NCBI GenBank assembly: GCA_965223425.1
Contig: OZ245003.1
Coordinates: forward strand, 1,120,001 to 1,184,000
Direction of reading: 5' to 3'
DNA: 64,000 nucleotides
Source of the DNA: Nitrosopumilus sp.
GTDB taxonomy: Archaea > Thermoproteota > Nitrososphaeria > Nitrososphaerales > Nitrosopumilaceae
Shown: positions 3,464 through 18,137 of the stretch, piece by piece
Layout: every line of letters starts with the position of its first letter
How positions within the stretch are numbered: the stretch's first letter is position 1
Made by a program: the position numbers and the translations under genes
The notes under the pieces: model-generated
What the model saw: the letters and a program-made list of their open reading frames with translations, nothing else
Database searches by the model: none
What the model was told of the DNA's origin: nothing

Positions 3464-4449
3464 GGCATGACCTCTTGCGGTACATGCAGAGGAGACGATG
3501 TCCCTCTGCCTCCTCTACTGTCAGTAACTAACTTTCCCTGCGCACACCTTGGGCACATGCAGAGGAGACGATGTCCCTCTGTCTCCTCTGCCCCGAAGAT
3601 CCCCTCGATGAGTTCCCTGCCTGTACGTCTCCTCGTCAAAGAGCTGCGCTGCCCGCCTCCTGTGGAACTTGCCGCGGTTTGTTGCACCCCTTCTCTGCTT
3701 TTGATGTGTAGGGGATCATTCTCATCCCAAAGACCGTCTTGCAGTTCTTGCCAGAGTCGTATCTCATGTCAGCGCACAGTACGGAACCCACCAGCGGCAT
3801 GATTCGTCGACGCACATGCGCGCAGTCTGGGCAAGTATCAGATCCATCCATCCTGTCCTGATGCGCTGAAGGTACCTGGCAATCGTGGTGTGGTCAGGCA
3901 CCGGCTTCCTCCAAGGCAGGTCCCGGTGCGGCACCAGGTTCTGCATGTACCGGTACGTGGCATTCAGCATGACTGTCAGCATGCACACGCAATGCATCTT
4001 GGCATCAGAGCGGACTGCCTTGCGCCCCCCGGTGTTGTTTCTTGCCGGCGGGGAGGGGAGGAGGAGGAGGGGTTGTTTTTGATCAAAAAACTAATTTGTC
4101 TGTCAGGAATCTTAGTTCCTGTGTGTGCCAGATGGTAACTTTTCCAGTAACCATCTTTTCGTTTATTCATTGAAGGGGCACACACACTCCTGATCCAAAT
4201 GCGGCGCTGTCAAAAAGACGTAATTTGGCACTCAGAGGGAATTACGCAACAACTTCTGATCATTGGCCAATTCAAAATACGTGGTAGGTTTTAGGTGTGT
4301 TGTGCAACAATAGGAGGAGGAGGGAAGTGAACTACTTTTAGGATCCCACACATCTGAAGATCGTGCAATATCTTAATGAATGGTGGATATAGTTGATCTC
4401 TTCAAAAGGGAGGGCATAAATTCTAGATTCTAAATAAAAAAATGAAACT

Positions 4450-5202
4450 ATGAGTGGTGAAACTGAAAGTACTTTCTCAAACTTTGGTGTTTATGTCATT
4501 AGTGAGGATCTTGAACTATCGCTTCCCAACACAACGATCAAAATTCAACGAATAGGGGAAAATGCTTTTTCATATTTTAGAAAAGACTCTGAAGGAAAAA
4601 TTGTAGAAAAAATGATTCCTGCAAAATCAAATGAAATCCAAATTGAGATGGCCCCTATACGGCCATTAAATCATCCAGCCAGACGAACTGGTTATGTTTT
4701 TTTGAAATTTGATAAAGAAATCTATCTTAGGGAGAATTCTGCTGCAAGTATTTTTGTTCATTGTCCAATTGAGGTTGGAATTTTTTTAATTGATGGATCT
4801 AATCGCGAATCTTTGGACTGGGTTACCTGTAACCCCATAAATTCTAGATTTGGCCTTTATGGCTCTCCTGACACCGGCACATTATGCAAATATGCCCAAG
4901 TATCATTGGCTACTGACTACAGTGACTCTGTTCCATATGTTGAAGGTGTCATGAAAATTATTATTGAAAATACTCTAAAAACTGGCCAAACAGTCAGTAA
5001 AGTGATTTTTCCAATCACTGACAACTCACTATATTATGAAGAATCAAAAACAATAGTTGATGGTATCAAAGTTACTCTTCGAAAGAGAGCAGCAGTCAGT
5101 ATTGCAGATATCAAAACTGATCCTGTTGATACGGACTGGACTAAATCCCCTACATGGGAAGACACCACTGTTAGTACCGCCATGGAGATGAGATTAGAAT
5201 AA
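4450..5202 (+). CDS. DUF432-domain protein
   Basis: PIEVGIF and LYGSPDTGTLCKY motifs; coupled to mscS as commonly seen in archaea. Confidence 0.8.
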   Translation: MSGETESTFSNFGVYVISEDLELSLPNTTIKIQRIGENAFSYFRKDSEGKIVEKMIPAKSNEIQIEMAPIRPLNHPARRTGYVFLKFDKEIYLRENSAASIFVHCPIEVGIFLIDGSNRESLDWVTCNPINSRFGLYGSPDTGTLCKYAQVSLATDYSDSVPYVEGVMKIIIENTLKTGQTVSKVIFPITDNSLYYEESKTIVDGIKVTLRKRAAVSIADIKTDPVDTDWTKSPTWEDTTVSTAMEMRLE

Positions 5203-6026
5203 TGCCCTTAGAATTCCTTCAGAGTTTATCTGGCATGCAAATTGTTGGTACTCTGACTGTTCTCTCATTGTTGATTGGAGGAATTATCATGGCAATAGGC
5301 GTCATTGTTGCCAAAATTGCCAAACTATTGTTTTACAAATATTATGCGCCAACATTACCAAAAGATACTGCACAAAATCTCAGCAAATTAATTTACTTTG
5401 GAATAATAATACTCTCCTTTTTGGCATTCACATCAAGTCAGGGAATTGATCTATCTGGGTTGATGGTTGCAGGAGGAATCTTTGCCGTAGTGATTGGATT
5501 TGCAACACAATCAGTTGTTTCTAATTTAATTTCAGGTATTTTCCTTATTGTTGAAAAACCAGCAAAACATGGAGATACAATCCATCTGCCTGATATGGGA
5601 ATTTATGGAACCCTGTTAGATATTGGAACCTTTTCTAGCAGGGTTAGAAAGTTTGATGGAACCATAATTCGAATTCCTAACGAAAAATTCTTTACATCCA
5701 ATATTCGCTCGCTTACTGTTTCAGTCGTTCGAAGGGCAAAAGTATCGGTAGGAATTTCCTACAAAACTGACATTGAAAATGCAATATCTGTAATTAAAAA
5801 AGAGATTGAACTTAGCATGCCTTTTGTGCTTCGTGTTCCAGAACCTGAATTCTGGGTAAATGAACTTGGTGATTCAAGTGTAAATATTCAGGTGCTAGTA
5901 TGGCATCCTAAGGATGATTGGAGTCAGGCACAGCCCATCTTGCTTACTACAATAAAACGTGCATTAGACAGGGCCGGAATAGAGATCCCGTTCCCACAGC
6001 GTGTTGTTTGGGAAGCAAAAGACTAG
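5202..6026 (+). CDS. mscS: Small-conductance mechanosensitive channel (MscS family)
   Basis: Three TM helices, IGFATQSVVSNLISG, IRIPNEKF, GIEIPFPQR. Confidence 0.95.
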   Translation: MPLEFLQSLSGMQIVGTLTVLSLLIGGIIMAIGVIVAKIAKLLFYKYYAPTLPKDTAQNLSKLIYFGIIILSFLAFTSSQGIDLSGLMVAGGIFAVVIGFATQSVVSNLISGIFLIVEKPAKHGDTIHLPDMGIYGTLLDIGTFSSRVRKFDGTIIRIPNEKFFTSNIRSLTVSVVRRAKVSVGISYKTDIENAISVIKKEIELSMPFVLRVPEPEFWVNELGDSSVNIQVLVWHPKDDWSQAQPILLTTIKRALDRAGIEIPFPQRVVWEAKD

Positions 6027-6027
6027 T

Positions 6028-6324
6028 TTATGCAGTATTTGCGGCAACCTGTTTTTTCTCGCGTCTCTTCTTAATCAGGCTAAACATTATCATTCCAACG
6101 TTGATAATTGAAATAATTTCAATCAAGTCTACTCCGTACAAGAACCAATCAATAACTGGATGAACTCTTGATACAATCCCTGCCTCCAACATAATGTCTG
6201 CATTCCAAACCATGTGTGGAATTTGAATGAATTGTATTATTGCGATGACAATAACACTTCCTAGAATTTTATTCTCATACCATTTCCAAAATTTATTCCA
6301 TGCGTTCATGGTATCATTTGGCAA
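6028..6324 (-). CDS. Small membrane protein
   Basis: 98 aa with two hydrophobic segments and a basic C-terminal tail. Confidence 0.75.
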   Translation of the reverse strand: MPNDTMNAWNKFWKWYENKILGSVIVIAIIQFIQIPHMVWNADIMLEAGIVSRVHPVIDWFLYGVDLIEIISIINVGMIMFSLIKKRREKKQVAANTA

Positions 6325-10355: not shown

Positions 10356-11597
10356 TTGAGTAAAGTAAAGACTAGTCAAAAATTGATCAAGAAAGGCAAA
10401 TTATCTTATGAATGGGCTAGATCCCATATGCAAATTCTAGACAATACTGTTAATCGCTTTAAAAAATCTAAGCCCCTCAAGGGCGTAACACTTGGATTCT
10501 GTCTGCATATTACAAAAGAAACCTCTGTCTTACTAATGGGTGCCAAAGAATTGGGCGCAACCGTTGCATGTTGTGGTGGCAATCCGTTAACAACTCAAGA
10601 TGACATTGCAGCATTTTTGGCTTCTCAAGGAATTCATGTTTATTCTTGGCATGGACAATCTGTCAAAGAATATGATTGGTGTATTGATCAAGTATTGAAA
10701 CACAAACCAATAATTCTGACAGATGATGGGGCCGATATGAACATCAAGGCTCATTTTGATAAGAGATTTAAGAACATGAAAATTCTTGGAGCAACTGAAG
10801 AAACCACTGCCGGTGTTACTCGAATCAGAGCAGTAGAAAACCAGGGAAAACTCCGCTATCCTGTAATTCTAGTGAATGAGGCATATACAAAACACATGTT
10901 TGATAACCAATATGGAACCGGGCAAAGCACCATTGATGGCTATCTTCGGGCTATGAATTTGCTTATGGCCTCAAAACGTGTTGTTGTAGTTGGTTATGGT
11001 TGGGTCGGTCGTGGTGTTGCATCAAGATGCCATGGGATGGGCTCCAAAGTAATTGTCACTGAAATAGATCCTATTAAAGCACTAGAAGCTCACATGGATG
11101 GTTTTGAAGTAATGCCGATGTCACAGGCCTCCAAAACTGGTGACATTTTCATTACATGTACTGGAATGACGAGTGTAATTAGAAAAGAGCACATATTACA
11201 AATGAAAGGTGGCGCAATCATGGGAAATGTCGGCCACTTTGATGTTGAAATTGATAGTGAATTCTTACTCAGGCAGTCAAAATCTGTTAAAGAAGTAAGA
11301 CCCAGTCTTGATGAATGCACTTTGAAAAACGGAAAGAAAGTGTATTTGATTGGTCAGGGCCGACTTGCAAACTTGGTTGCAGCAGAAGGACATCCGCCGG
11401 AAGTTATGGCCCAATCATTTTCAAATCAAATTTTATCTGTTTTGTACATTCTCAAAAATCACAAAAAAATGGGAAATAAAATTATCAATGTTCCTGAAGA
11501 AATCGATAGACAAGTGGCAGTTGATGCATTAAGAGCGATGGATGTTAAAATAGACAAACTGACACCAGAGCAGGTAAAATACGCTAATAGCTGGTAA
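10356..11597 (+). CDS. ahcY: Adenosylhomocysteinase
   Basis: EETTAG, KHMFDNQYGTG, GYGWVGRG, AEGHP. Confidence 0.98.
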   Translation: MSKVKTSQKLIKKGKLSYEWARSHMQILDNTVNRFKKSKPLKGVTLGFCLHITKETSVLLMGAKELGATVACCGGNPLTTQDDIAAFLASQGIHVYSWHGQSVKEYDWCIDQVLKHKPIILTDDGADMNIKAHFDKRFKNMKILGATEETTAGVTRIRAVENQGKLRYPVILVNEAYTKHMFDNQYGTGQSTIDGYLRAMNLLMASKRVVVVGYGWVGRGVASRCHGMGSKVIVTEIDPIKALEAHMDGFEVMPMSQASKTGDIFITCTGMTSVIRKEHILQMKGGAIMGNVGHFDVEIDSEFLLRQSKSVKEVRPSLDECTLKNGKKVYLIGQGRLANLVAAEGHPPEVMAQSFSNQILSVLYILKNHKKMGNKIINVPEEIDRQVAVDALRAMDVKIDKLTPEQVKYANSW

Positions 11598-11626: not shown

Positions 11627-11715
11627 TAGATCTAGTACACAATTAACACAATTTGATTACCTTTTCAGAATTTATTCATAGCATGATCAAATCACGGCAT
11701 GCTGTACTAAACACC
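11627..11715 (+). repeat. 89-bp inverted repeat, left copy (MITE-like island boundary)
   Basis: Near-identical to the reverse complement of 16347-16435. Confidence 0.9.
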
Positions 11716-11904
11716 ATGTTTTTTGCTTTTCAAAGCGAGTCTTTACGTCCTTCTTTTACCCAGTCTGGAAGATCCTTATGATGTCAGGTAAGAGGCGAGC
11801 TGATTTTGGAATCGAATGGCAGAATTTTGCATCTAAAACCACTAAATATTGTAATCATCAGATTTTTAAAATCCGATACCCATATTCTGGCAGATGTGCA
11901 ATAA

Positions 11905-12486
11905 ATGTCAATGATTGATGAGAAAATCGAGCAGTTCAACGATGTAGATAGATTTATTTTGTTACTGCTAGGTGCAAAAAATTCTGAATCCGTACCTGGC
12001 CCCATACATTTTCAAAAAGAAATGTATTTGCTTCAAAATCTATTTCCAAAATTAGCAGATGAGACTGATTACGACGCATACCTTCTTGAACCACACAGTG
12101 AGATTGTAGCCGACGAGGCAGAGCAGTTAGAATCTGCTGGATTAATAAGAGCAAAGACAGGAAATCTTGAGTTAACTTCAGATGGAAAAAAAGTCTTCAA
12201 CATATTAAAAAAGAGATCGAGTAAAGAAGAGACTAGAAAAATTGAAGAGTTCAAAGAACTTCTCAATGACTTGACCAAGGATGAGCTTTTGGCCTTCATA
12301 TATTTCTCTTACCCGTCCCAAGACGAACTTGAAAAGGAATCTATCGAGTACAAGGATCTTCTGCCAAAGCGAAAAAAACTTGCGATATCTATGTATCAAA
12401 GGGGCAAGATTAGTGCCCAAAAGGCAGCACAGATAGCAGGAGAGCATCTAGAAGATTTTCTTAAGGAATTAAAAAACGTGGCGTAG
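11905..12486 (+). CDS. Putative antitoxin: SocA/Panacea-like winged-helix domain fused to UPF0175-like C-terminus
   Basis: HFQKEMYLL...YDAYLLEPHS (QK..YL / GP.S-like) and LAISMYQRGKISAQKAAQIAG; immediately upstream of a PIN gene. Confidence 0.75.
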   Translation: MSMIDEKIEQFNDVDRFILLLLGAKNSESVPGPIHFQKEMYLLQNLFPKLADETDYDAYLLEPHSEIVADEAEQLESAGLIRAKTGNLELTSDGKKVFNILKKRSSKEETRKIEEFKELLNDLTKDELLAFIYFSYPSQDELEKESIEYKDLLPKRKKLAISMYQRGKISAQKAAQIAGEHLEDFLKELKNVA

Positions 12487-12742
12487 ATGAAAATTTTTGA
12501 TGCTACAGCGGTAATTGCATTTCTAAACGACATGAACTACTCAGATGGGATAATGGAACTCTCAAAACATTATGAGATAATTATTCCCAAAGGTGTTGCC
12601 GATGAGATTAAAAAATCCCCCGGAAAAGAGATGTTGCAAGATTTAGTAAAACAAAAGGCAATAAAGATTGGTACGTAGTGAATTGGATTAACAATCGCTC
12701 ACAAAACAGACAACATTATTCAACCACAAGATCTAGATCCCA

Positions 12743-13801
12743 GTGTATGGCAGAATCCGCATGAAATACAACAATTCTGCAATACCGGCAGACAGAAGGT
12801 TCCTGTCCGGCGTCTCCAGTGCGCGCCTGCGCAGCATGCAAAAAAAGGAGACAGATCCCAGGGCCGCAGCAAGGCTGCTGGCATATGCCATGCGCAAGGA
12901 GGGCATGTCCATACGCCGGATATGCAGGGCCCTCAACAGGTCATACTCTACAGTACGGGGCTGGCTTGTGCGCGCCGCACAGCTTGGCACCTGCGGCAGG
13001 TACGACATCAAAAACAAAGGCGCGCCAAACAAGCTCGATCCGGAACAGACAAAGCAGCTGCGCGCAGACCTGCTGGCAGGCCCGCGCAGTTGCGGCTTTG
13101 AGTCCGGAGTGTGGACGGCACCGCTGCTGGCCGCACACATCAGAAAAAAGTTCGGCGTGCAGTATGCCACTGTCAGCATATATGACATACTGCACAGGAT
13201 GGGCTTTTCGTGCAGAAAGCCGCGTCCAAAGCACCCAAAATCAGCCTCAGAATCAGAGAAAAAAGAGTTTAAAAAAAAAGCAGGGGAGATAATCCAGAGT
13301 CATCCAGACCATACGGTGATTACAGTTGATGAGGCCTCCTTTATCATTGGATGGAATACCAAGAACGGGTGGTACCTCAAGGGCAAGCCCGTCACCACTC
13401 CAGTCAGCCTGTCGCGCAAAAGGTTCTACTCGTTTGGGGCGCTGTACGACGGCGGCTTTGACTGCAGGTTCTATGCCAAGGCCAACAGCTACAGCTTTGT
13501 GGACATGCTCGGACACCTGCATCTCAAGCACGGCAAGATCATCGTCTTTCTTGATAACGCATCATACCACAAGTCAAAGATGGTCAATGATTTTGTCGAC
13601 TCGTATGACGGCGACATAGTCCTTGTTTACTTGCCCGTGTACACCCCGGAGCTGAATACCACGGAGGGGCAGTGGAGGCTGTTAAGAAGGGCCACTGCAA
13701 ACGTGATGTATGAAAGCACAAAGGTGATGAAGGAATCCATATGGACAATGCTGGATAGACGTGAGGTCAAGATAACAAGAATGAGCGGTTATTTATCCTA
13801 G
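12743..13801 (+). CDS. IS630-family transposase (element ~12674-13809)
   Basis: HTH, VDEASF, LDNASYH, YTPELNTTE; inverted ends ACGTAGTGA / TCACTACGT. Confidence 0.92.
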   Translation: MYGRIRMKYNNSAIPADRRFLSGVSSARLRSMQKKETDPRAAARLLAYAMRKEGMSIRRICRALNRSYSTVRGWLVRAAQLGTCGRYDIKNKGAPNKLDPEQTKQLRADLLAGPRSCGFESGVWTAPLLAAHIRKKFGVQYATVSIYDILHRMGFSCRKPRPKHPKSASESEKKEFKKKAGEIIQSHPDHTVITVDEASFIIGWNTKNGWYLKGKPVTTPVSLSRKRFYSFGALYDGGFDCRFYAKANSYSFVDMLGHLHLKHGKIIVFLDNASYHKSKMVNDFVDSYDGDIVLVYLPVYTPELNTTEGQWRLLRRATANVMYESTKVMKESIWTMLDRREVKITRMSGYLS

Positions 13802-13809
13802 TCACTACG

Positions 13810-14657
13810 TCACCGCCCCTGCTGGGCCGTATTGCATAAAACGTATCGCCACTGGCCGAATTGTAAAATATCCACACCCAGACCAGGACTCCGTCGAGTC
13901 GTATGGATGTCTCATCGATGTTGAGTACGGCCGCACCTCTTATTTTTTCCAGTATCCTCATGCTTGGATTCTCCAGATTCGTGCCCACATACCGCACTAT
14001 GTTGTGGATTGTGCCAGTAGATATTGGAACTCCCATATTCGTGATTCTTTGGGCGTTTAGTCTGCATGGCATTCGATCCATGTGGTTGGTCACTATCTCA
14101 GATATTATGTTGTGGCCATAATTTCCATATCCGGGCAGACAGGCATCGCCCTGTATTCCTGCCTTGCCGCATTGGTTGCACGTACACGTGTGTATTGTGT
14201 GTCGTGTGGTAACTGGTTTTGGTACGGGAATCTCCGTAATGTCGCGTACGTTCGTATCTGTCACGTCAAGCTCGGAGGCGCCGCAGTTGGGACACGTTTT
14301 GGGCATGTGCTCGGTGAATTCTGTTGGTTTGGGCCTGCTAGTGGTTCCCTTGTGGCCGGTTTGTGCGCCCTGCTTGCGGGGCGATTTTTCATCGGTGTCT
14401 TTTTCGTAGTTGCGCGTACGCTGTCGGGTCAGGGTGTTATGGGAAGGTGGTGTGTTGGGATTATCATAATATGCCACTATGCGCTCAAGTGCCTTTATTC
14501 TGGATTCATACTTGTTTGTCATCTCCCCATACTTGGATTCATACTTGTTTGTCATCTCCTCATACTTGTTTGCCATCTTTTCTATTGTCTGCTTTTGAAT
14601 CAGATTTTCTGTGCGGAGCTGCTTGTACATTTTCTTGTAGTCGCGCGTATCCTTCAA
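13810..14657 (-). pseudogene. IS66-family transposase, 3'-truncated
   Basis: Coiled coil, NTPPS, GAQTGHKG, CPNC/CNQC zinc finger, IDETSI, WVW; ends at the IS630 junction. Confidence 0.88.
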
Positions 14658-14878
14658 TATGACAGGTAAACCGAACTGGTATTTAGCTTGAGATGGTGAT
14701 CAAAAATTGATCCATTGGGGGAAAATTAGGCATGACGTGAACAGATACAAAGATTGTTAAAGTCGATCAATCAAAGGTAGATCAAATTCTAAACGAACAT
14801 CCACAGCTTCATAGAGGAGAATGCGAAGTCATAGAATTCATGCAATCATATTCAGGAAGAAATAATGCTTGTATAGTA

Positions 14879-14975
14879 GACCTTATGCGTAATCGACTAA
14901 AAATTCAAAATCAAATTGGTTTACTAAGGCAAAAATTATCTCGCAATATTAGTTTGATCGATTATGCATAAGGTC
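14879..14975. mobile_element. 97-bp MITE inside the PIN gene
   Basis: TIR GACCTTATGC(G/A)TAATCGA matching at 17/18; 5-bp TSD TAGTA (14874-14878, 14976-14980). Confidence 0.92.
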
Positions 14976-15144
14976 TAGTATCTGATGATTCAAAAGCTCG
15001 AAAGATTTTTCAAATGCTTAACTTCAAGTGGACCGAAAAACTATTGGATATTATGAAAGAGAAGGGAATAATCGACAAGCAAACTCATGCTTCTAAAAGT
15101 AGCAAGCTTCAAAACGCGGCATTTTATTCAAGGAGAAGAAAATT

Positions 15145-16312
15145 ATGACGACATATTTGCAAATCGAGACTCTTTCAAATGACAACAAAAAGTCGCTCTT
15201 TAGGAGTCAGAGGATAAAACTGAACGGTAAGAAGGCAGTGACTCCTCTAAAGGCACTGGATCCTACAAAATTCCGCTCTGATGTTTCTCTGAACAAGAAG
15301 GCATTTGGATTCAATGAAATCTATAGAGTGTTAAACTCGGATAAGATATCTTTGTTGCAAAAAGACTCGTACGAACATGACCGTTTCTCAAAAACACTGT
15401 CAAATATGGTTAGAAAAAGCCAATTAAATGACCTTAATGTCTGTCTAGTAAAGTTTTCTTCAAAGAGATCAACCGTTTCCACTCAAAAAAGAGATAGAAT
15501 TTCTAACTGATGTGGCACACAGCTTTTCTGATATTACTCCAATGCCAATTGTTGATATCAAGATAAACAGTTCCAATTTTTCAAGATATCTGAATTATCT
15601 ACAACTGTGTTATGATACAATAGAAGAGCTGAATAACAAACCCATTATGGGAATGCTTCCCAACATGCCACGAGAACTGTATCCAAAGCTTTTAGAATTT
15701 TATATTAAAAACCGAATCTCTTCATTTTGTTTTGATTTCAATGGACAGACACCAGACCACCTTAAGCTTCGTCCTGTAATGAGGTATCTCAACACAAAAG
15801 AACTTCTAAGCAAGACATTGATTTATGGAGTCAATGCAAAACCGGGAAGAGTGTTGAAAAACACTAACGTGATTCCTTCCAAAGATTTTATCGCCTACGG
15901 TTTTGGATTGGACATTCTTGGTGAAAGTCACATAGGAGCAAAAGGTTCAAAAGTATTCTTTGAAAAGATGAAAGTGGCAATAGGCAAACAGCAGGAAAAC
16001 AAGAAAAGAATCTTCATTAAATCTGATTATGGTTACTATAAAACAAATGTAAAGGAAGAAGTTTTCGGTCTTTATCCAAGTGACACAAAAATAAAATTAG
16101 ATGACATATTGCACGATTCACAACAAACTTGGCAGAAACTTTTCAATATGGAGCAACAATCAATAGAAACAGGCAGAATAAGAAAAAGACTTGAATCATT
16201 AGACAGGAACGAGACGATTCTAACTTATATTAAGAAAAAAACACAAATCAAAAAAGAACTCAAGCATCTTGAATCAGAACCTAAGAATATTTCACAGCAA
16301 ATGCTAATTTAA
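15145..16312 (+). pseudogene. TGT (tRNA-guanine transglycosylase)-like barrel protein, frameshifted near 15470-15490
   Basis: The 121-aa and 266-aa ORFs join via FPLKKEIEFLTDVAH. N-terminus FRSQRIKLNGKKAVTP and C-terminal LFNMEQQ..E..RIR helix resemble TGT; no CxCxxC zinc site. Confidence 0.55.
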
Positions 16313-16346
16313 TTGAAACATAGATGGCAGGCACACACACACCCTA

Positions 16347-16435
16347 GGTGTTTAGTACGGCATGCCGTGATTTGGATCATGCTGTGAATAAATTCTGAAA
16401 AAGTAATCAAATTGTGTTATTGTGCACTAGATCTA
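16347..16435 (-). repeat. 89-bp inverted repeat, right copy
   Basis: Reverse complement of 11627-11715 with few differences. Confidence 0.9.
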
Positions 16436-16481
16436 TGGTCTAAAACTTCTTAACCCCATTACTGTTCCTGACTATTGTCTG

Positions 16482-18137
16482 ATGAACAGAAAAGCCATCA
16501 TTACTAGTGCTTTACCTTACGCAAATGGAGAAATTCATTTGGGGCATGTTGCATCTACGTACTTGCCTGCAGATGTCACCACTAGATTCTTGAAACTAAA
16601 TGGAGTGGAGGCTTACTATGTTTGCGCATCTGATGATTTTGGAACGCCTATCTTAATTCAATCAGAAAAAGAGGGAAAAACACCTGCTGATTATGTTGCT
16701 CATTGGAACAAGCGTGACTTGGAAGATTTTACCTCGTTTAACATTGGATTTGATTATTTCTACAAGACCAGCTCTCCTGAAAACATTGCATTTGTTCAAG
16801 ACGTTTTCAAAAAACTAAACGATGCAGGTCATATCTATGAACAAGAAATCATTCAGTTCTATTGTAATAATGATAAAAAATTCTTACCTGACAGATATGT
16901 AAAAGGCACATGTCCCTACTGTAAAGCCGAAGACCAGTACTCTGATCTTTGTGAAAGCTGCGGCCGTGTCCCTGAAGAAATTACTGATCCAAAGTGTTCG
17001 CTTTGTGGCCGGCCTCCCACAAAAGAGAAGACCAATCATTATTTCTTTAAATTAAAAAATTTTGGTGATTCATTATCTAAATGGTTAGATGAAAACGACC
17101 ATCTCCAAAAAGATGTAAAAAAATATGTTCAGAACTGGATAACCTCTGGATTAATTGATTGGGATGTAACCCGTGATATTTCTTGGGGTGTGCCTGTGCC
17201 ACTTGACAATGCCAAAGACAAAGTATTCTATGGGTGGTTTGATAATCATTTAGCATACATTTCAACTGCAATAAAATTCCTAAATGATAAGGGAATTGAT
17301 GGAAAAGAGTTCTGGAATTCTGCTGACATTTATCACTTTATTGGAAAAGATATTGCGTATCATCACTACCTTTTCTTGCCTGCAATGAGATTGGGAATTA
17401 ATAGTGAATACAAATTACCTGATTACATCCCAACACGAGGACATCTTACCTTACAATCGAAGAAAATTTCTAAAAGCAGAAATTGGTATATTGGTCTGAA
17501 AGAATTTCTTGAATACTATCCTGCAGATTATCTTCGATATTACCTAGTATCAATTAACCCGTATTCCCAAGATGACTTGAATTTTGATTGGAATGACTTT
17601 ACCACTAGAATTAATTCAGAATTAATTGGAAATCTTGGAAATTTTATTAACCGTGCGTTGGGATTTACCAAAAAAGCGTTTGACGGTAAGGTTCCAGAGT
17701 CTGAGTCTTATGACGATAAAGATTCTGAGGCAGAACAAAAAATCAAAAGTTTTGCAGATGATGTGGGTTCACTCATGGAGCAAAACCATCTAGACAGGGC
17801 ATTAAAGAAGATAATGGAATTCTCATCGTACTTTAACCAATACTTTCAACACAAAGAGCCATGGAAAAAGGGCCCTGGCACTGCAAGCTGTGTATTTCTT
17901 TCAGTTAACGCTGCCAGAAGCTTGGCAATTGCCATTTTCCCATTTCTTCCAGAGTCTGCTCAGAAAATTTGGGATCAGTTGGGACTAGATGGAAATACCG
18001 GTGAATCATCTTGGAATGAGATATCTGTTTTGGGAATTTCTTCTAATCACGTCTTGGGCGAGGCTGCCCCTTTGTTTACAAAAGTTGAAGAGTCTGACAT
18101 TGAAAAATATAAAAAACAATTAGGCCCTTCTGAGTGA
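16482..18137 (+). CDS. metG: Methionine--tRNA ligase
   Basis: TSALPYANG, HLGH, zinc knuckle, KISKS. Confidence 0.98.
   Translation: MNRKAIITSALPYANGEIHLGHVASTYLPADVTTRFLKLNGVEAYYVCASDDFGTPILIQSEKEGKTPADYVAHWNKRDLEDFTSFNIGFDYFYKTSSPENIAFVQDVFKKLNDAGHIYEQEIIQFYCNNDKKFLPDRYVKGTCPYCKAEDQYSDLCESCGRVPEEITDPKCSLCGRPPTKEKTNHYFFKLKNFGDSLSKWLDENDHLQKDVKKYVQNWITSGLIDWDVTRDISWGVPVPLDNAKDKVFYGWFDNHLAYISTAIKFLNDKGIDGKEFWNSADIYHFIGKDIAYHHYLFLPAMRLGINSEYKLPDYIPTRGHLTLQSKKISKSRNWYIGLKEFLEYYPADYLRYYLVSINPYSQDDLNFDWNDFTTRINSELIGNLGNFINRALGFTKKAFDGKVPESESYDDKDSEAEQKIKSFADDVGSLMEQNHLDRALKKIMEFSSYFNQYFQHKEPWKKGPGTASCVFLSVNAARSLAIAIFPFLPESAQKIWDQLGLDGNTGESSWNEISVLGISSNHVLGEAAPLFTKVEESDIEKYKKQLGPSE

Follow-up and report, generated by a model that had tools for sequence, protein, structure and literature searches.

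Gene organization of the cassette

A 64,000-nucleotide (nt) stretch of the genome of Nitrosopumilus sp. (assembly GCA_965223425.1, contig OZ245003.1, positions 1,120,001 to 1,184,000 of the forward strand) was analyzed; it is called the window below, and positions refer to it unless another contig is named. Positions 11905 to 16312 hold a three-gene cassette consisting of a gene with an antitoxin-type domain (gene A), a PIN toxin gene and a third gene (gene X), whose product is predicted to have the fold of the tRNA-guanine transglycosylases (TGT). The results described here strongly support the view that the region represents a degenerate copy of a three-gene module that is conserved and horizontally mobile and is made up of A, an RNase-type toxin (in most cases a PIN, in some ParE/RelE) and X. 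The parts of the trio are as follows.

11905-12486, + strand: gene A, 193 amino acids (aa), intact; winged-helix N-terminal domain (N-domain) and UPF0175 C-terminal domain (C-domain, residues 149-191)
12487-12670, + strand: PIN gene, piece 1; profile positions 1-62, E 5e-16
14749-14875, + strand: PIN gene, piece 2; profile positions 64-103, E 2e-7
14982-15148, + strand: PIN gene, piece 3; profile positions 105-160, E 3e-10; its stop codon overlaps the start of gene X
15145-15510, + strand: gene X, N-terminal fragment in frame 1; family profile E 2.9e-26
15452-16312, + strand: gene X, C-terminal fragment in the +1 frame; family profile E 4.6e-91

The stop codon of gene A (TAG, 12484-12486) directly abuts the ATG of the PIN gene at 12487, and the stop of the PIN gene and the start of gene X overlap in an ATGA at 15145-15148. 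The PIN profile, which has 167 positions, was made from intact homologues, and because the three pieces cover it almost without gaps, the gene was split by insertions and nothing was deleted from it. Frame 1 of gene X comprises 121 codons, of which about the first 108 are homologous to the family. The second frame, which is open from 15452, encodes 266 aa when counted from a GTG at 15512. Comparison with homologues placed the +1 frameshift at about 15463-15475 and not at a run of A residues further on. No tRNA gene and no Rfam family was found in or beside the cassette.

An initial annotation, made from the sequence of the window alone, had described this layout with its TAG-ATG junction at 12486/12487, its ATGA overlap, two insertions and one frameshift, and all of these were found in the sequence as described. 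It had also regarded the copy as inactivated. This is the case, with the PIN gene in three pieces and gene X frameshifted, and gene A alone of the three is still intact. In the product of the window gene A, the nearly invariant W42 and G67 are replaced by H and E, and the C-terminal fragment of X has I at the nearly invariant N of the RLFN motif. Judged from the alignments, these odd residues would fit relaxed selection after inactivation.

A search for intact homologous operons yielded an intact paralogous trio in the same genome. Its gene X (403 aa) is divergent from a gene A (219 aa) that is followed by an overlapping PIN gene (171 aa). The window A matched the Pfam family UPF0175 (PF03683) at E 9.3e-9 with 35.3 bits, above the cut-off of 27.9, and the paralogous A did so at E 1.9e-9 with 37.5 bits. 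The PIN protein of the paralogue matched the PADLOC model PDC-S70 at E 2.6e-11. The family assignments originally given to the first and second genes, UPF0175 and a DUF3368-type PIN, therefore held, the latter by this match and by the coverage of the PIN profile by the three pieces.

Size and distribution of the X family

A word-indexed search found 36 relatives of X, none of which carried a Pfam domain. In a profile search of 1.84 billion cluster representatives, 704 representatives were found at E <=1e-3 and 254 at E <=1e-30; those listed were standalone proteins, mostly of 360-430 aa. The Pfam models gave no match to the X fragments of the window or to the paralogous X. For 31 members of the family they gave scattered chance matches only (E >=0.014), and none to TGT at E <=0.1. 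NCBIfam gave no match, and PADLOC had no model for X. In a protein atlas, X fell into unnamed archaeal clusters, with one lead (0.83) to a cluster in which 14% of the members carry the TGT domain PF01702.

A scan of species genomes revealed 30 X loci. The hosts were Nitrososphaeria, Bathyarchaeia, Methanoperedens/ANME-2, Nano- and Woesearchaeota, Thermoplasmatota and one bacterium of the Terriglobia. Within the class to which the window belongs the distribution was patchy, as only 13 of 301 genomes had X, including 5 of 67 other genomes of the same genus. The tree of X was discordant with the organismal lineage: the bacterial copy nested among those of the Bathyarchaeia, and the genus of the window had two distant types. 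This discordance indicates horizontal transfer. The viral collection contained a single X locus, on an IMG/VR contig (locus L096), so the module is not typically virus-borne. On this 32-kb predicted viral contig the trio lies at 3971-6258 in the order X, A, PIN.

Linkage of X with gene A and a toxin gene

An A-type gene and a toxin gene were present next to X in 24 of 25 testable loci. The C-terminal UPF0175 domain was detected at E <=0.01 in 24 of the 25 testable genes beside X, the exception being locus L029. In a second genome sample, two of whose 12 loci duplicate loci of the first set, A and PIN were found in 10 loci; the remaining two were a contig end and a fragment. The linkage spans several archaeal phyla and one bacterium and includes overlaps of start and stop codons. 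The proposal that the three genes form one system was thus borne out in both samples.

Three gene orders were observed: that of the window (A-toxin-X), one in which X diverges from A-toxin, and, on the IMG/VR contig, X-A-toxin. Among the 25 toxin genes, 22 belonged to one PIN family and three to the ParE family, the latter with 31.9-44.4 bits, above the cut-off. Pfam matches to PIN or DUF3368 were obtained for 11 of the 25 genes; they were weak and mostly below the cut-offs. A profile built from 12 Pfam-positive PIN proteins (these 11 and that of the paralogue) matched the 11 Pfam-negative toxin genes at E <=4e-24, and four acidic columns were invariant or nearly so in this profile. The X genes linked to ParE formed one clade (support 100/99) within the clade with the divergent arrangement. 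This nesting shows that one toxin replaced another beside a retained pair of A and X. In the ParE clade (loci L010, L011 and L012), A is longer by a C-terminal tail of about 35 aa.

Structure prediction for protein X

The AlphaFold2 model of the paralogous X had a mean predicted local distance difference test score (pLDDT) of 91.2 and a predicted template modelling score (pTM) of 0.91. It shows a TGT-type (beta/alpha)8 barrel including the N-terminal closing hairpin. When the model was compared with about 48,000 chains using VIA-align, the archaeal enzyme ArcTGT (1iq8_A) ranked first with a Z of 22.9, 318 residues being aligned at a root-mean-square deviation of 3.8. The bacterial Tgt (3unt_A) reached a Z of 22.3, QTRT2 (6fv5_A) 19.6, DpdA (7ui4_A) 15.4 and Cap10 (9ntn_B) 14.6, while unrelated TIM barrels reached 12.8 or lower. 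With Foldseek, all 50 of the top 50 matches were TGT-type, the best with an E of 1.7e-8. As both methods agree and the model is a confident one, the assignment of X to the TGT fold is well supported. That the three-gene module is real and that X has a TGT fold can be regarded as highly probable.

Cysteine columns were examined in 119 full-length X representatives sharing less than 50% identity. No such column reached 30%, and X therefore has no zinc site. The ArcTGT alignment, for contrast, has invariant C262, C264, C267 and H290. The zinc-less TGT-like barrel foreseen by the initial annotation for the third protein was accordingly recovered. At the place where TGT has the zinc module, X has a conserved hairpin with the motif RLFN..DYGYY.

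Conserved residues of X and their relation to TGT motifs

In the same 119 representatives, P33 and N241 were present in all sequences and E60 and K388 in 117, followed by D258 (110), D267 (109), D204 and H273 (107 each) and D139 (103). E60, D139, D204, N241, D258, D267 and H273 lie at predicted strand ends. The acidic residues previously singled out as candidates in the motifs SDITP, CFDFNG and GLDILG are among the well-kept positions, their aspartates being conserved in 103, 107 and 109 of the representatives. Judged by the alignment, this conservation has the look of a functional pocket of a novel type.

The motifs of X were related to those of ArcTGT by pairing the predicted X strands one by one with the ArcTGT motifs, which gives a register inferred from strand and motif order. 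The pairs obtained in this way (X given first) were TP with TP, NEIY with NAY, SDI with SDI, IMGxIP with GPIQGG, DFxG with LGSP, HxFNV with HLFGAG, GFDSxG with GCDxFD, and FNV...E with HNL...E.

Domains and distribution of protein A

The window A aligned over its full length with 23 homologues, residues from about 13 to 175 being strongly conserved. Besides UPF0175 it matched the PADLOC model PDC-M19A at E 9.1e-6. The closest solved structure to the N-domain was, by two methods, the C-domain of DarG in the DarTG complex (PDB 7yk3). The structural comparison gave a Z of 11.0 with 155 aligned residues, and in Foldseek this structure was at rank 1 with an E of 0.023. Echoes of DarG in the sequence were weak (PADLOC DarG E 0.0023, PDB E 0.17).

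The first gene had also been placed in the SocA/Panacea group, and this assignment was not upheld. The window A had no match to Pfam SocA_Panacea (PF13274, DUF4065) at E <=1, and only three of 25 A homologues matched it, with 17.9-19.4 bits (E 0.002-0.006) and so below the cut-off of 25.7 bits. To go by these faint matches, a distant relationship of A with SocA/Panacea is possible.

X was almost always found near A, but A was often found without X, which means that X depends on A and not A on X. Such a distribution is characteristic of a promiscuous antitoxin domain. Eight strong A-only loci (L099, L100 and L103-L108) contained no X and no full PIN gene; two of them had PIN stumps. They adjoin genes, or pieces of genes, for AAA ATPases, AbiEii, CARF/Csa3-like proteins and transposases. 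The genome of the window itself has an A-type copy at G000:C1:1983297-1983728 and four weaker copies. Such solitary A-type proteins look like orphan antitoxins in defence-island-like places. A 386-aa gene beside an A-only copy was considered as a possible relative of X and was rejected on comparison.

Predicted complex of A and X

Three runs of a model of the A-X complex each gave a score of 0.88, while the best of three controls scored 0.01. The runs agreed in at least 95% of the contacts, and the partner pLDDT was 86. In the calibration of the complex-prediction tool, the mark was reached by 58 of 80 solved complexes and by 2 of 110 mismatched pairs; these counts hold only roughly for A and X, as own alignments were used for their model. 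The modelled interface on A comprises residues 3-17, 58-60, 71-85 and 104 of the N-domain. On X it comprises residues 148-152, 179-194 and 206-230, which belong to the loops and helices after strands 4-6, and residues 397-401 of the last helix. A probably binds X; the score of the model supports binding and does not show it.

Proposed function of the module

The module is tentatively interpreted as a tripartite toxin-antitoxin or defence system in which X is a second effector held by A, a reading whose chances we judge to be nearly even. A would be a bridging antitoxin. Its UPF0175 C-domain would neutralise the RNase toxin, and its DarG-like N-domain would clamp the rim of the X barrel at the loops after strands 4-6, beside the conserved pocket. 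X would be an enzyme acting on a nucleobase or nucleotide substrate, and it would use a remodelled pocket formed by E60, D139, D204, N241, D258, D267 and H273 together with the RLFN..DYGYY hairpin in place of the canonical TGT aspartates. Loss or titration of A, as might occur when a virus infects the cell or the element is lost, would free both effectors and stop growth. That X is a catalytic effector inhibited by A is possible, if somewhat doubtful. The window, in which PIN and X are broken and A is intact, and the A-only loci that lack X and a full PIN gene are what would be expected if both partners of A were costly.

Several observations weigh against this interpretation. A search of the whole genome with PF01702 found only the genuine ArcTGT and not X, comparison of the X and ArcTGT alignments with hhalign gave a probability of 1.2%, and no sequence of the PDB matched the X profile at E <=10. 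In the register described above, the aspartates of the TGT motifs TDSGG, LD and FD correspond to Y107, P144 and G270 of X, and X may therefore be a pseudo-enzyme; a forced global hhalign alignment gave another register in the middle of X. The base-exchange or glycosylase chemistry that had been suggested for the third protein was not supported: by motif and strand order, the three aspartates of TGT catalysis and base reading appear to be replaced, and PF01702 and profile comparisons do not detect X. A truncated X-like open reading frame (ORF) at locus L029 and a 217-aa fragment at L093 have neither A nor PIN nearby. The divergent orientation of X relative to A in one clade is unusual for a toxin. 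A-type proteins were found in 63 of the 301 genomes of the class, compared with the 13 that have X, so the N-domain of A is not dedicated to X, and the idea that this domain is confined to genomes with X was refuted. Apart from having no X model, PADLOC offers in PDC-S70 a candidate that is itself unvalidated.

The same observations can be read differently. X might be a non-catalytic subunit with a TGT fold, a pseudo-enzyme like QTRT2, that acts as a sensor or as a stabiliser of A, by analogy with the chaperone of the toxin-antitoxin-chaperone (TAC) systems. Diversion of X, for example by nucleic acid or a protein of a virus or by a modified base, would destabilise A and release the RNase toxin. 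The loss of the zinc site and, in the register used, of the canonical aspartates agrees with such a role, as do the non-catalytic QTRT2 as third-best structural match and the in silico support for binding of A to X. The toxin is interchangeable while the N-domain of A and X are constant, and TAC systems show the same pattern with an interchangeable toxin. Divergent transcription of X in one clade also suits a regulator better than a toxin. On the other hand, more than 20 positions of X are conserved in the 119 representatives, as is seen more typically in a ligand pocket or an active site than in a scaffold, and the inactivation of the window X along with PIN, while A survives, is easier to understand if X is costly. 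We consider a non-catalytic X, the main alternative, rather unlikely. An equally speculative form of the effector reading, which we also take to be unlikely as it stands, is that X represents a new enzymatic branch of the TGT superfamily with a rebuilt site attacking a nucleobase in RNA, DNA or a nucleotide, and that it serves as the second warhead of a dual-effector abortive-infection system of archaea, in which the two domains of A would hold one effector each. The rebuilt site would, by residue conservation, include Glu60, Asp204, Asn241, His273 and the Tyr-rich hairpin that replaces the zinc module. In a bolder variant X would recognise viral DNA modified with 7-deazaguanine and fire the module.

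X could also be an active transglycosylase for 7-deazaguanine or guanine, of the ArcTGT/DpdA type, that acts on host DNA or tRNA with the preQ0 of the host, the modification serving as a self-mark or as protection from the partner RNase. The fold of X is closest to those of ArcTGT, TGT and DpdA, and the host has a genuine ArcTGT, so preQ0 is presumably made. Two TGT-invariant aspartates seem to be kept in X (that of SDI and the first one of GxDxF), and the alternative register would put D139 and D315 at catalytic positions. Such an enzyme is nevertheless improbable: X has no detectable similarity to PF01702 and no zinc site, and in the eight-strand register matched by secondary structure G270, Y107 and P144 take the places of nucleophile, general base and base-reading Asp. 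No preQ0 synthesis genes were seen in the cassette or the loci inspected, and a toxin that is either PIN or ParE argues against a modification tuned to one nuclease. It is very improbable that the genes are merely neighbours in defence or junk islands, with A and PIN as an ordinary two-gene pair and X as unrelated cargo. Many genomes do have A-type genes without X, and UPF0175 with a COG2405 PIN is a known predicted two-gene pair according to PMC5499597. Against such chance proximity stand the presence of X beside A and a toxin in nearly all loci of both samples and in three gene orders, and the score of the A-X model compared with that of its controls.

Relation to known systems

X shares with the TGT proteins (Tgt, ArcTGT and QTRT1/QTRT2; PF01702) the overall fold and the N-terminal hairpin that closes the barrel. 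It also appears to share remnants of motifs in the order TP, N.Y, P..E, SDI, G.I, H.F, G.D.F and N(L/V)...E...I.E. Unlike them, it has no PF01702 match and no zinc-binding cysteines or histidine, and its canonical aspartates appear to be replaced. In place of the zinc subdomain it has the RLFN..DYGYY hairpin and an extra helix. X further lacks the PUA and C-terminal domains, and it is encoded in a toxin-antitoxin cassette and not as a housekeeping gene. DpdA, the DNA preQ0 insertase of the Dpd systems, resembles X in having a TGT fold outside tRNA metabolism. DpdA acts together with DpdB and the genes for preQ0 synthesis, and the catalytic residues of TGT are retained in it, whereas no such neighbours of X were seen in the loci inspected.

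A module with a third protein is also known from the TAC systems. Like the module, they consist of three genes with a toxin that can be exchanged, and their antitoxin has an added segment for contact with the third protein (modelled for A and X). In the module, however, the third protein is a TGT-fold barrel and not a SecB-like chaperone. In its fold, the N-domain of A comes nearest to the domain that serves DarG in binding and inhibiting a nucleic-acid-modifying toxin, but A has no macrodomain, and its partner has a TGT fold rather than that of an ADP-ribosyltransferase. Like Panacea (DUF4065), A has a domain family that pairs with varied neighbours; the SocA_Panacea matches are weak and remain below the Pfam cut-off.

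Cap10, a component of the type IV cyclic oligonucleotide-based antiphage signalling system (CBASS; PDB 9ntn), is likewise a zinc-less TGT-fold protein encoded in a defence-type operon, and according to a preprint (bioRxiv 10.1101/2025.04.06.647259) it works, as is modelled for X, through a protein partner at or near the active-site face. The preprint also states that Cap10 keeps the base-reading residues D73, S74, D122 and K154 and a catalytic Asp/His pair and that a CD-NTase and the QueC-like Cap9 are its partners. No such partner accompanies X, which seems to be without those aspartates, and its fold is nearer to that of ArcTGT than to that of Cap10.

The pair of UPF0175 with a COG2405/DUF3368 PIN resembles the module in the UPF0175 C-domain, which in the module is part of A, in a DUF3368-like PIN, in the order of antitoxin before toxin and in the abutting or overlapping codons. 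The module differs from it by the extra conserved N-domain of about 150 aa in A, by the third gene X and by the ParE toxin in one clade. In PMC5499597, UPF0175 is reported to be exclusive to COG2405 PINs, and the three-component systems described there consist of a helix-turn-helix (HTH) protein, a DUF955 protease and a PIN and do not correspond to this trio. PDC-S70 is an unvalidated PADLOC candidate that is enriched in archaea according to a recent survey (PMC12988326).

In the literature searched, no account linking a TGT-fold protein to a UPF0175/PIN pair was found; the supplements of papers other than the Panacea paper could still bear on this. The text of the Panacea paper and two of its supplementary files contain neither "transglycosylase" nor "UPF0175"; its tables list a Nitrosopumilus genome as "noPanA". 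Neither "TGT" nor "transglycosylase" occurs in the main text of the archaeal immunity survey. What is already known is the predicted UPF0175-COG2405 PIN pair and the use of the TGT fold in defence by DpdA and Cap10. New is the third gene X, a new branch of the TGT superfamily, and its association with the UPF0175/PIN pair.

TGT-fold enzymes were long held to be tRNA housekeeping enzymes until the recruitment of this fold to genome defence became apparent from DpdA and Cap10. X would be a third and far more divergent recruitment, represented by a large, mainly archaeal family. PDC-S70 is among the commonest candidate defence genes in archaea, and with A and X the loci of this type turn from single-gene candidates into a testable three-protein machine. 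The module provides a modelled contact surface of A and X, a small set of candidate residues and intact natural copies, and it may reveal a new nucleobase chemistry or a new form of antitoxin control. As archaeal immunity is poorly charted, the wide reach of the module adds to its value.

Mobile elements in the PIN gene

The two insertions that split the PIN gene consist of the following elements.

12671-14748: composite insertion sequence (IS) block, made up of the tip of an IS66-family element, an IS630-like element and the rest of the IS66-family element
About 12673-13810: IS630-like element with 29-nt inverted ends; transposase at 12743-13801, + strand, DDE_3 E 5.9e-22
13811-14748 (938 bp): truncated IS66-family element; transposase at 13767-14657, - strand, DDE_Tnp_IS66 E 6.1e-14, zf-IS66
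About 14872-14981: insertion 2, similar to a miniature inverted-repeat transposable element (MITE), about 105 nt with 29-nt inverted ends; ends uncertain by about 5 nt

Insertion 1 stands out by a guanine-plus-cytosine (GC) content of 50-60% from about 12700 to 14700 inside a region of about 35% GC. It is flanked by an 8-bp direct repeat, AAAGATTG, at 12663-12670 and 14749-14756. The IS66-family remnant encodes the N-terminal 296 aa of the transposase. Its right end was confirmed by a second genomic copy; the left end was not found within the stretch examined around that copy. The simplest history of insertion 1 would be the insertion of an IS66-family element with an 8-bp duplication, a hop of the IS630-like element into its tip and an adjacent deletion by which the rest was lost.

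The genome contains 19 full-length copies of the IS630-like element, including that of the window, with 96-100% identity, and 21 copies of the MITE with 93-99% identity. The 19 near-identical copies suggest a recent burst of the IS630-like element. This element is 1.14 kb long and has 50-60% GC in a genome of 35% GC. With 2.64 Mb the genome is larger than every listed genome of the same genus (1.4-2.5 Mb).

Boundaries of the cassette

The trio lies in an insertion with the following limits.

11627-16441: inserted cassette, 4,815 bp, bounded by 89-nt inverted repeats
11627-11715, + strand: left terminal inverted repeat, 89 nt
16347-16435, - strand: right terminal inverted repeat, 89 nt

The two terminal repeats are 93-95% identical. 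The cassette is flanked by an adenosylhomocysteinase gene (10356-11597) and a methionyl-tRNA synthetase gene (16482-18137). In nine relatives, each from another genus of the same family, the two flanking genes were directly adjacent in eight cases, at a distance of about 35-155 bp. The empty site of the closest relative reads ...CTCTCTAC|AAAACTTCTTAAG, and the window reads ...TTCTCTAC|[insert]|AAAACTTCTTAAC. Neither a target-site duplication, which was looked for around the cassette, nor a recombinase gene was seen. The 89-nt repeat was absent from the flank of about 1.5 kb of a related colinear cassette in a genome of the same genus. There is strong support for the arrival of the window trio as a cassette bounded by inverted repeats and for its later inactivation by the IS66-family element, the IS630-like element with a deletion, the MITE and the frameshift.

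The genome of the window has three copies of the 89-nt repeat, the two cassette ends and one solo copy. The repeat may be a recombination or operator site common to toxin-antitoxin cassettes. The solo copy (L003 1501-1589; G000:C1:2474783-2474871) lies between a 60-aa ORF for a ribbon-helix-helix-like protein and an AbiEi antitoxin gene, and it is followed by a tandem duplicate of about 56 nt. A 12-bp palindrome, ACGGCATGCCGT, is contained in the 89-nt repeat.

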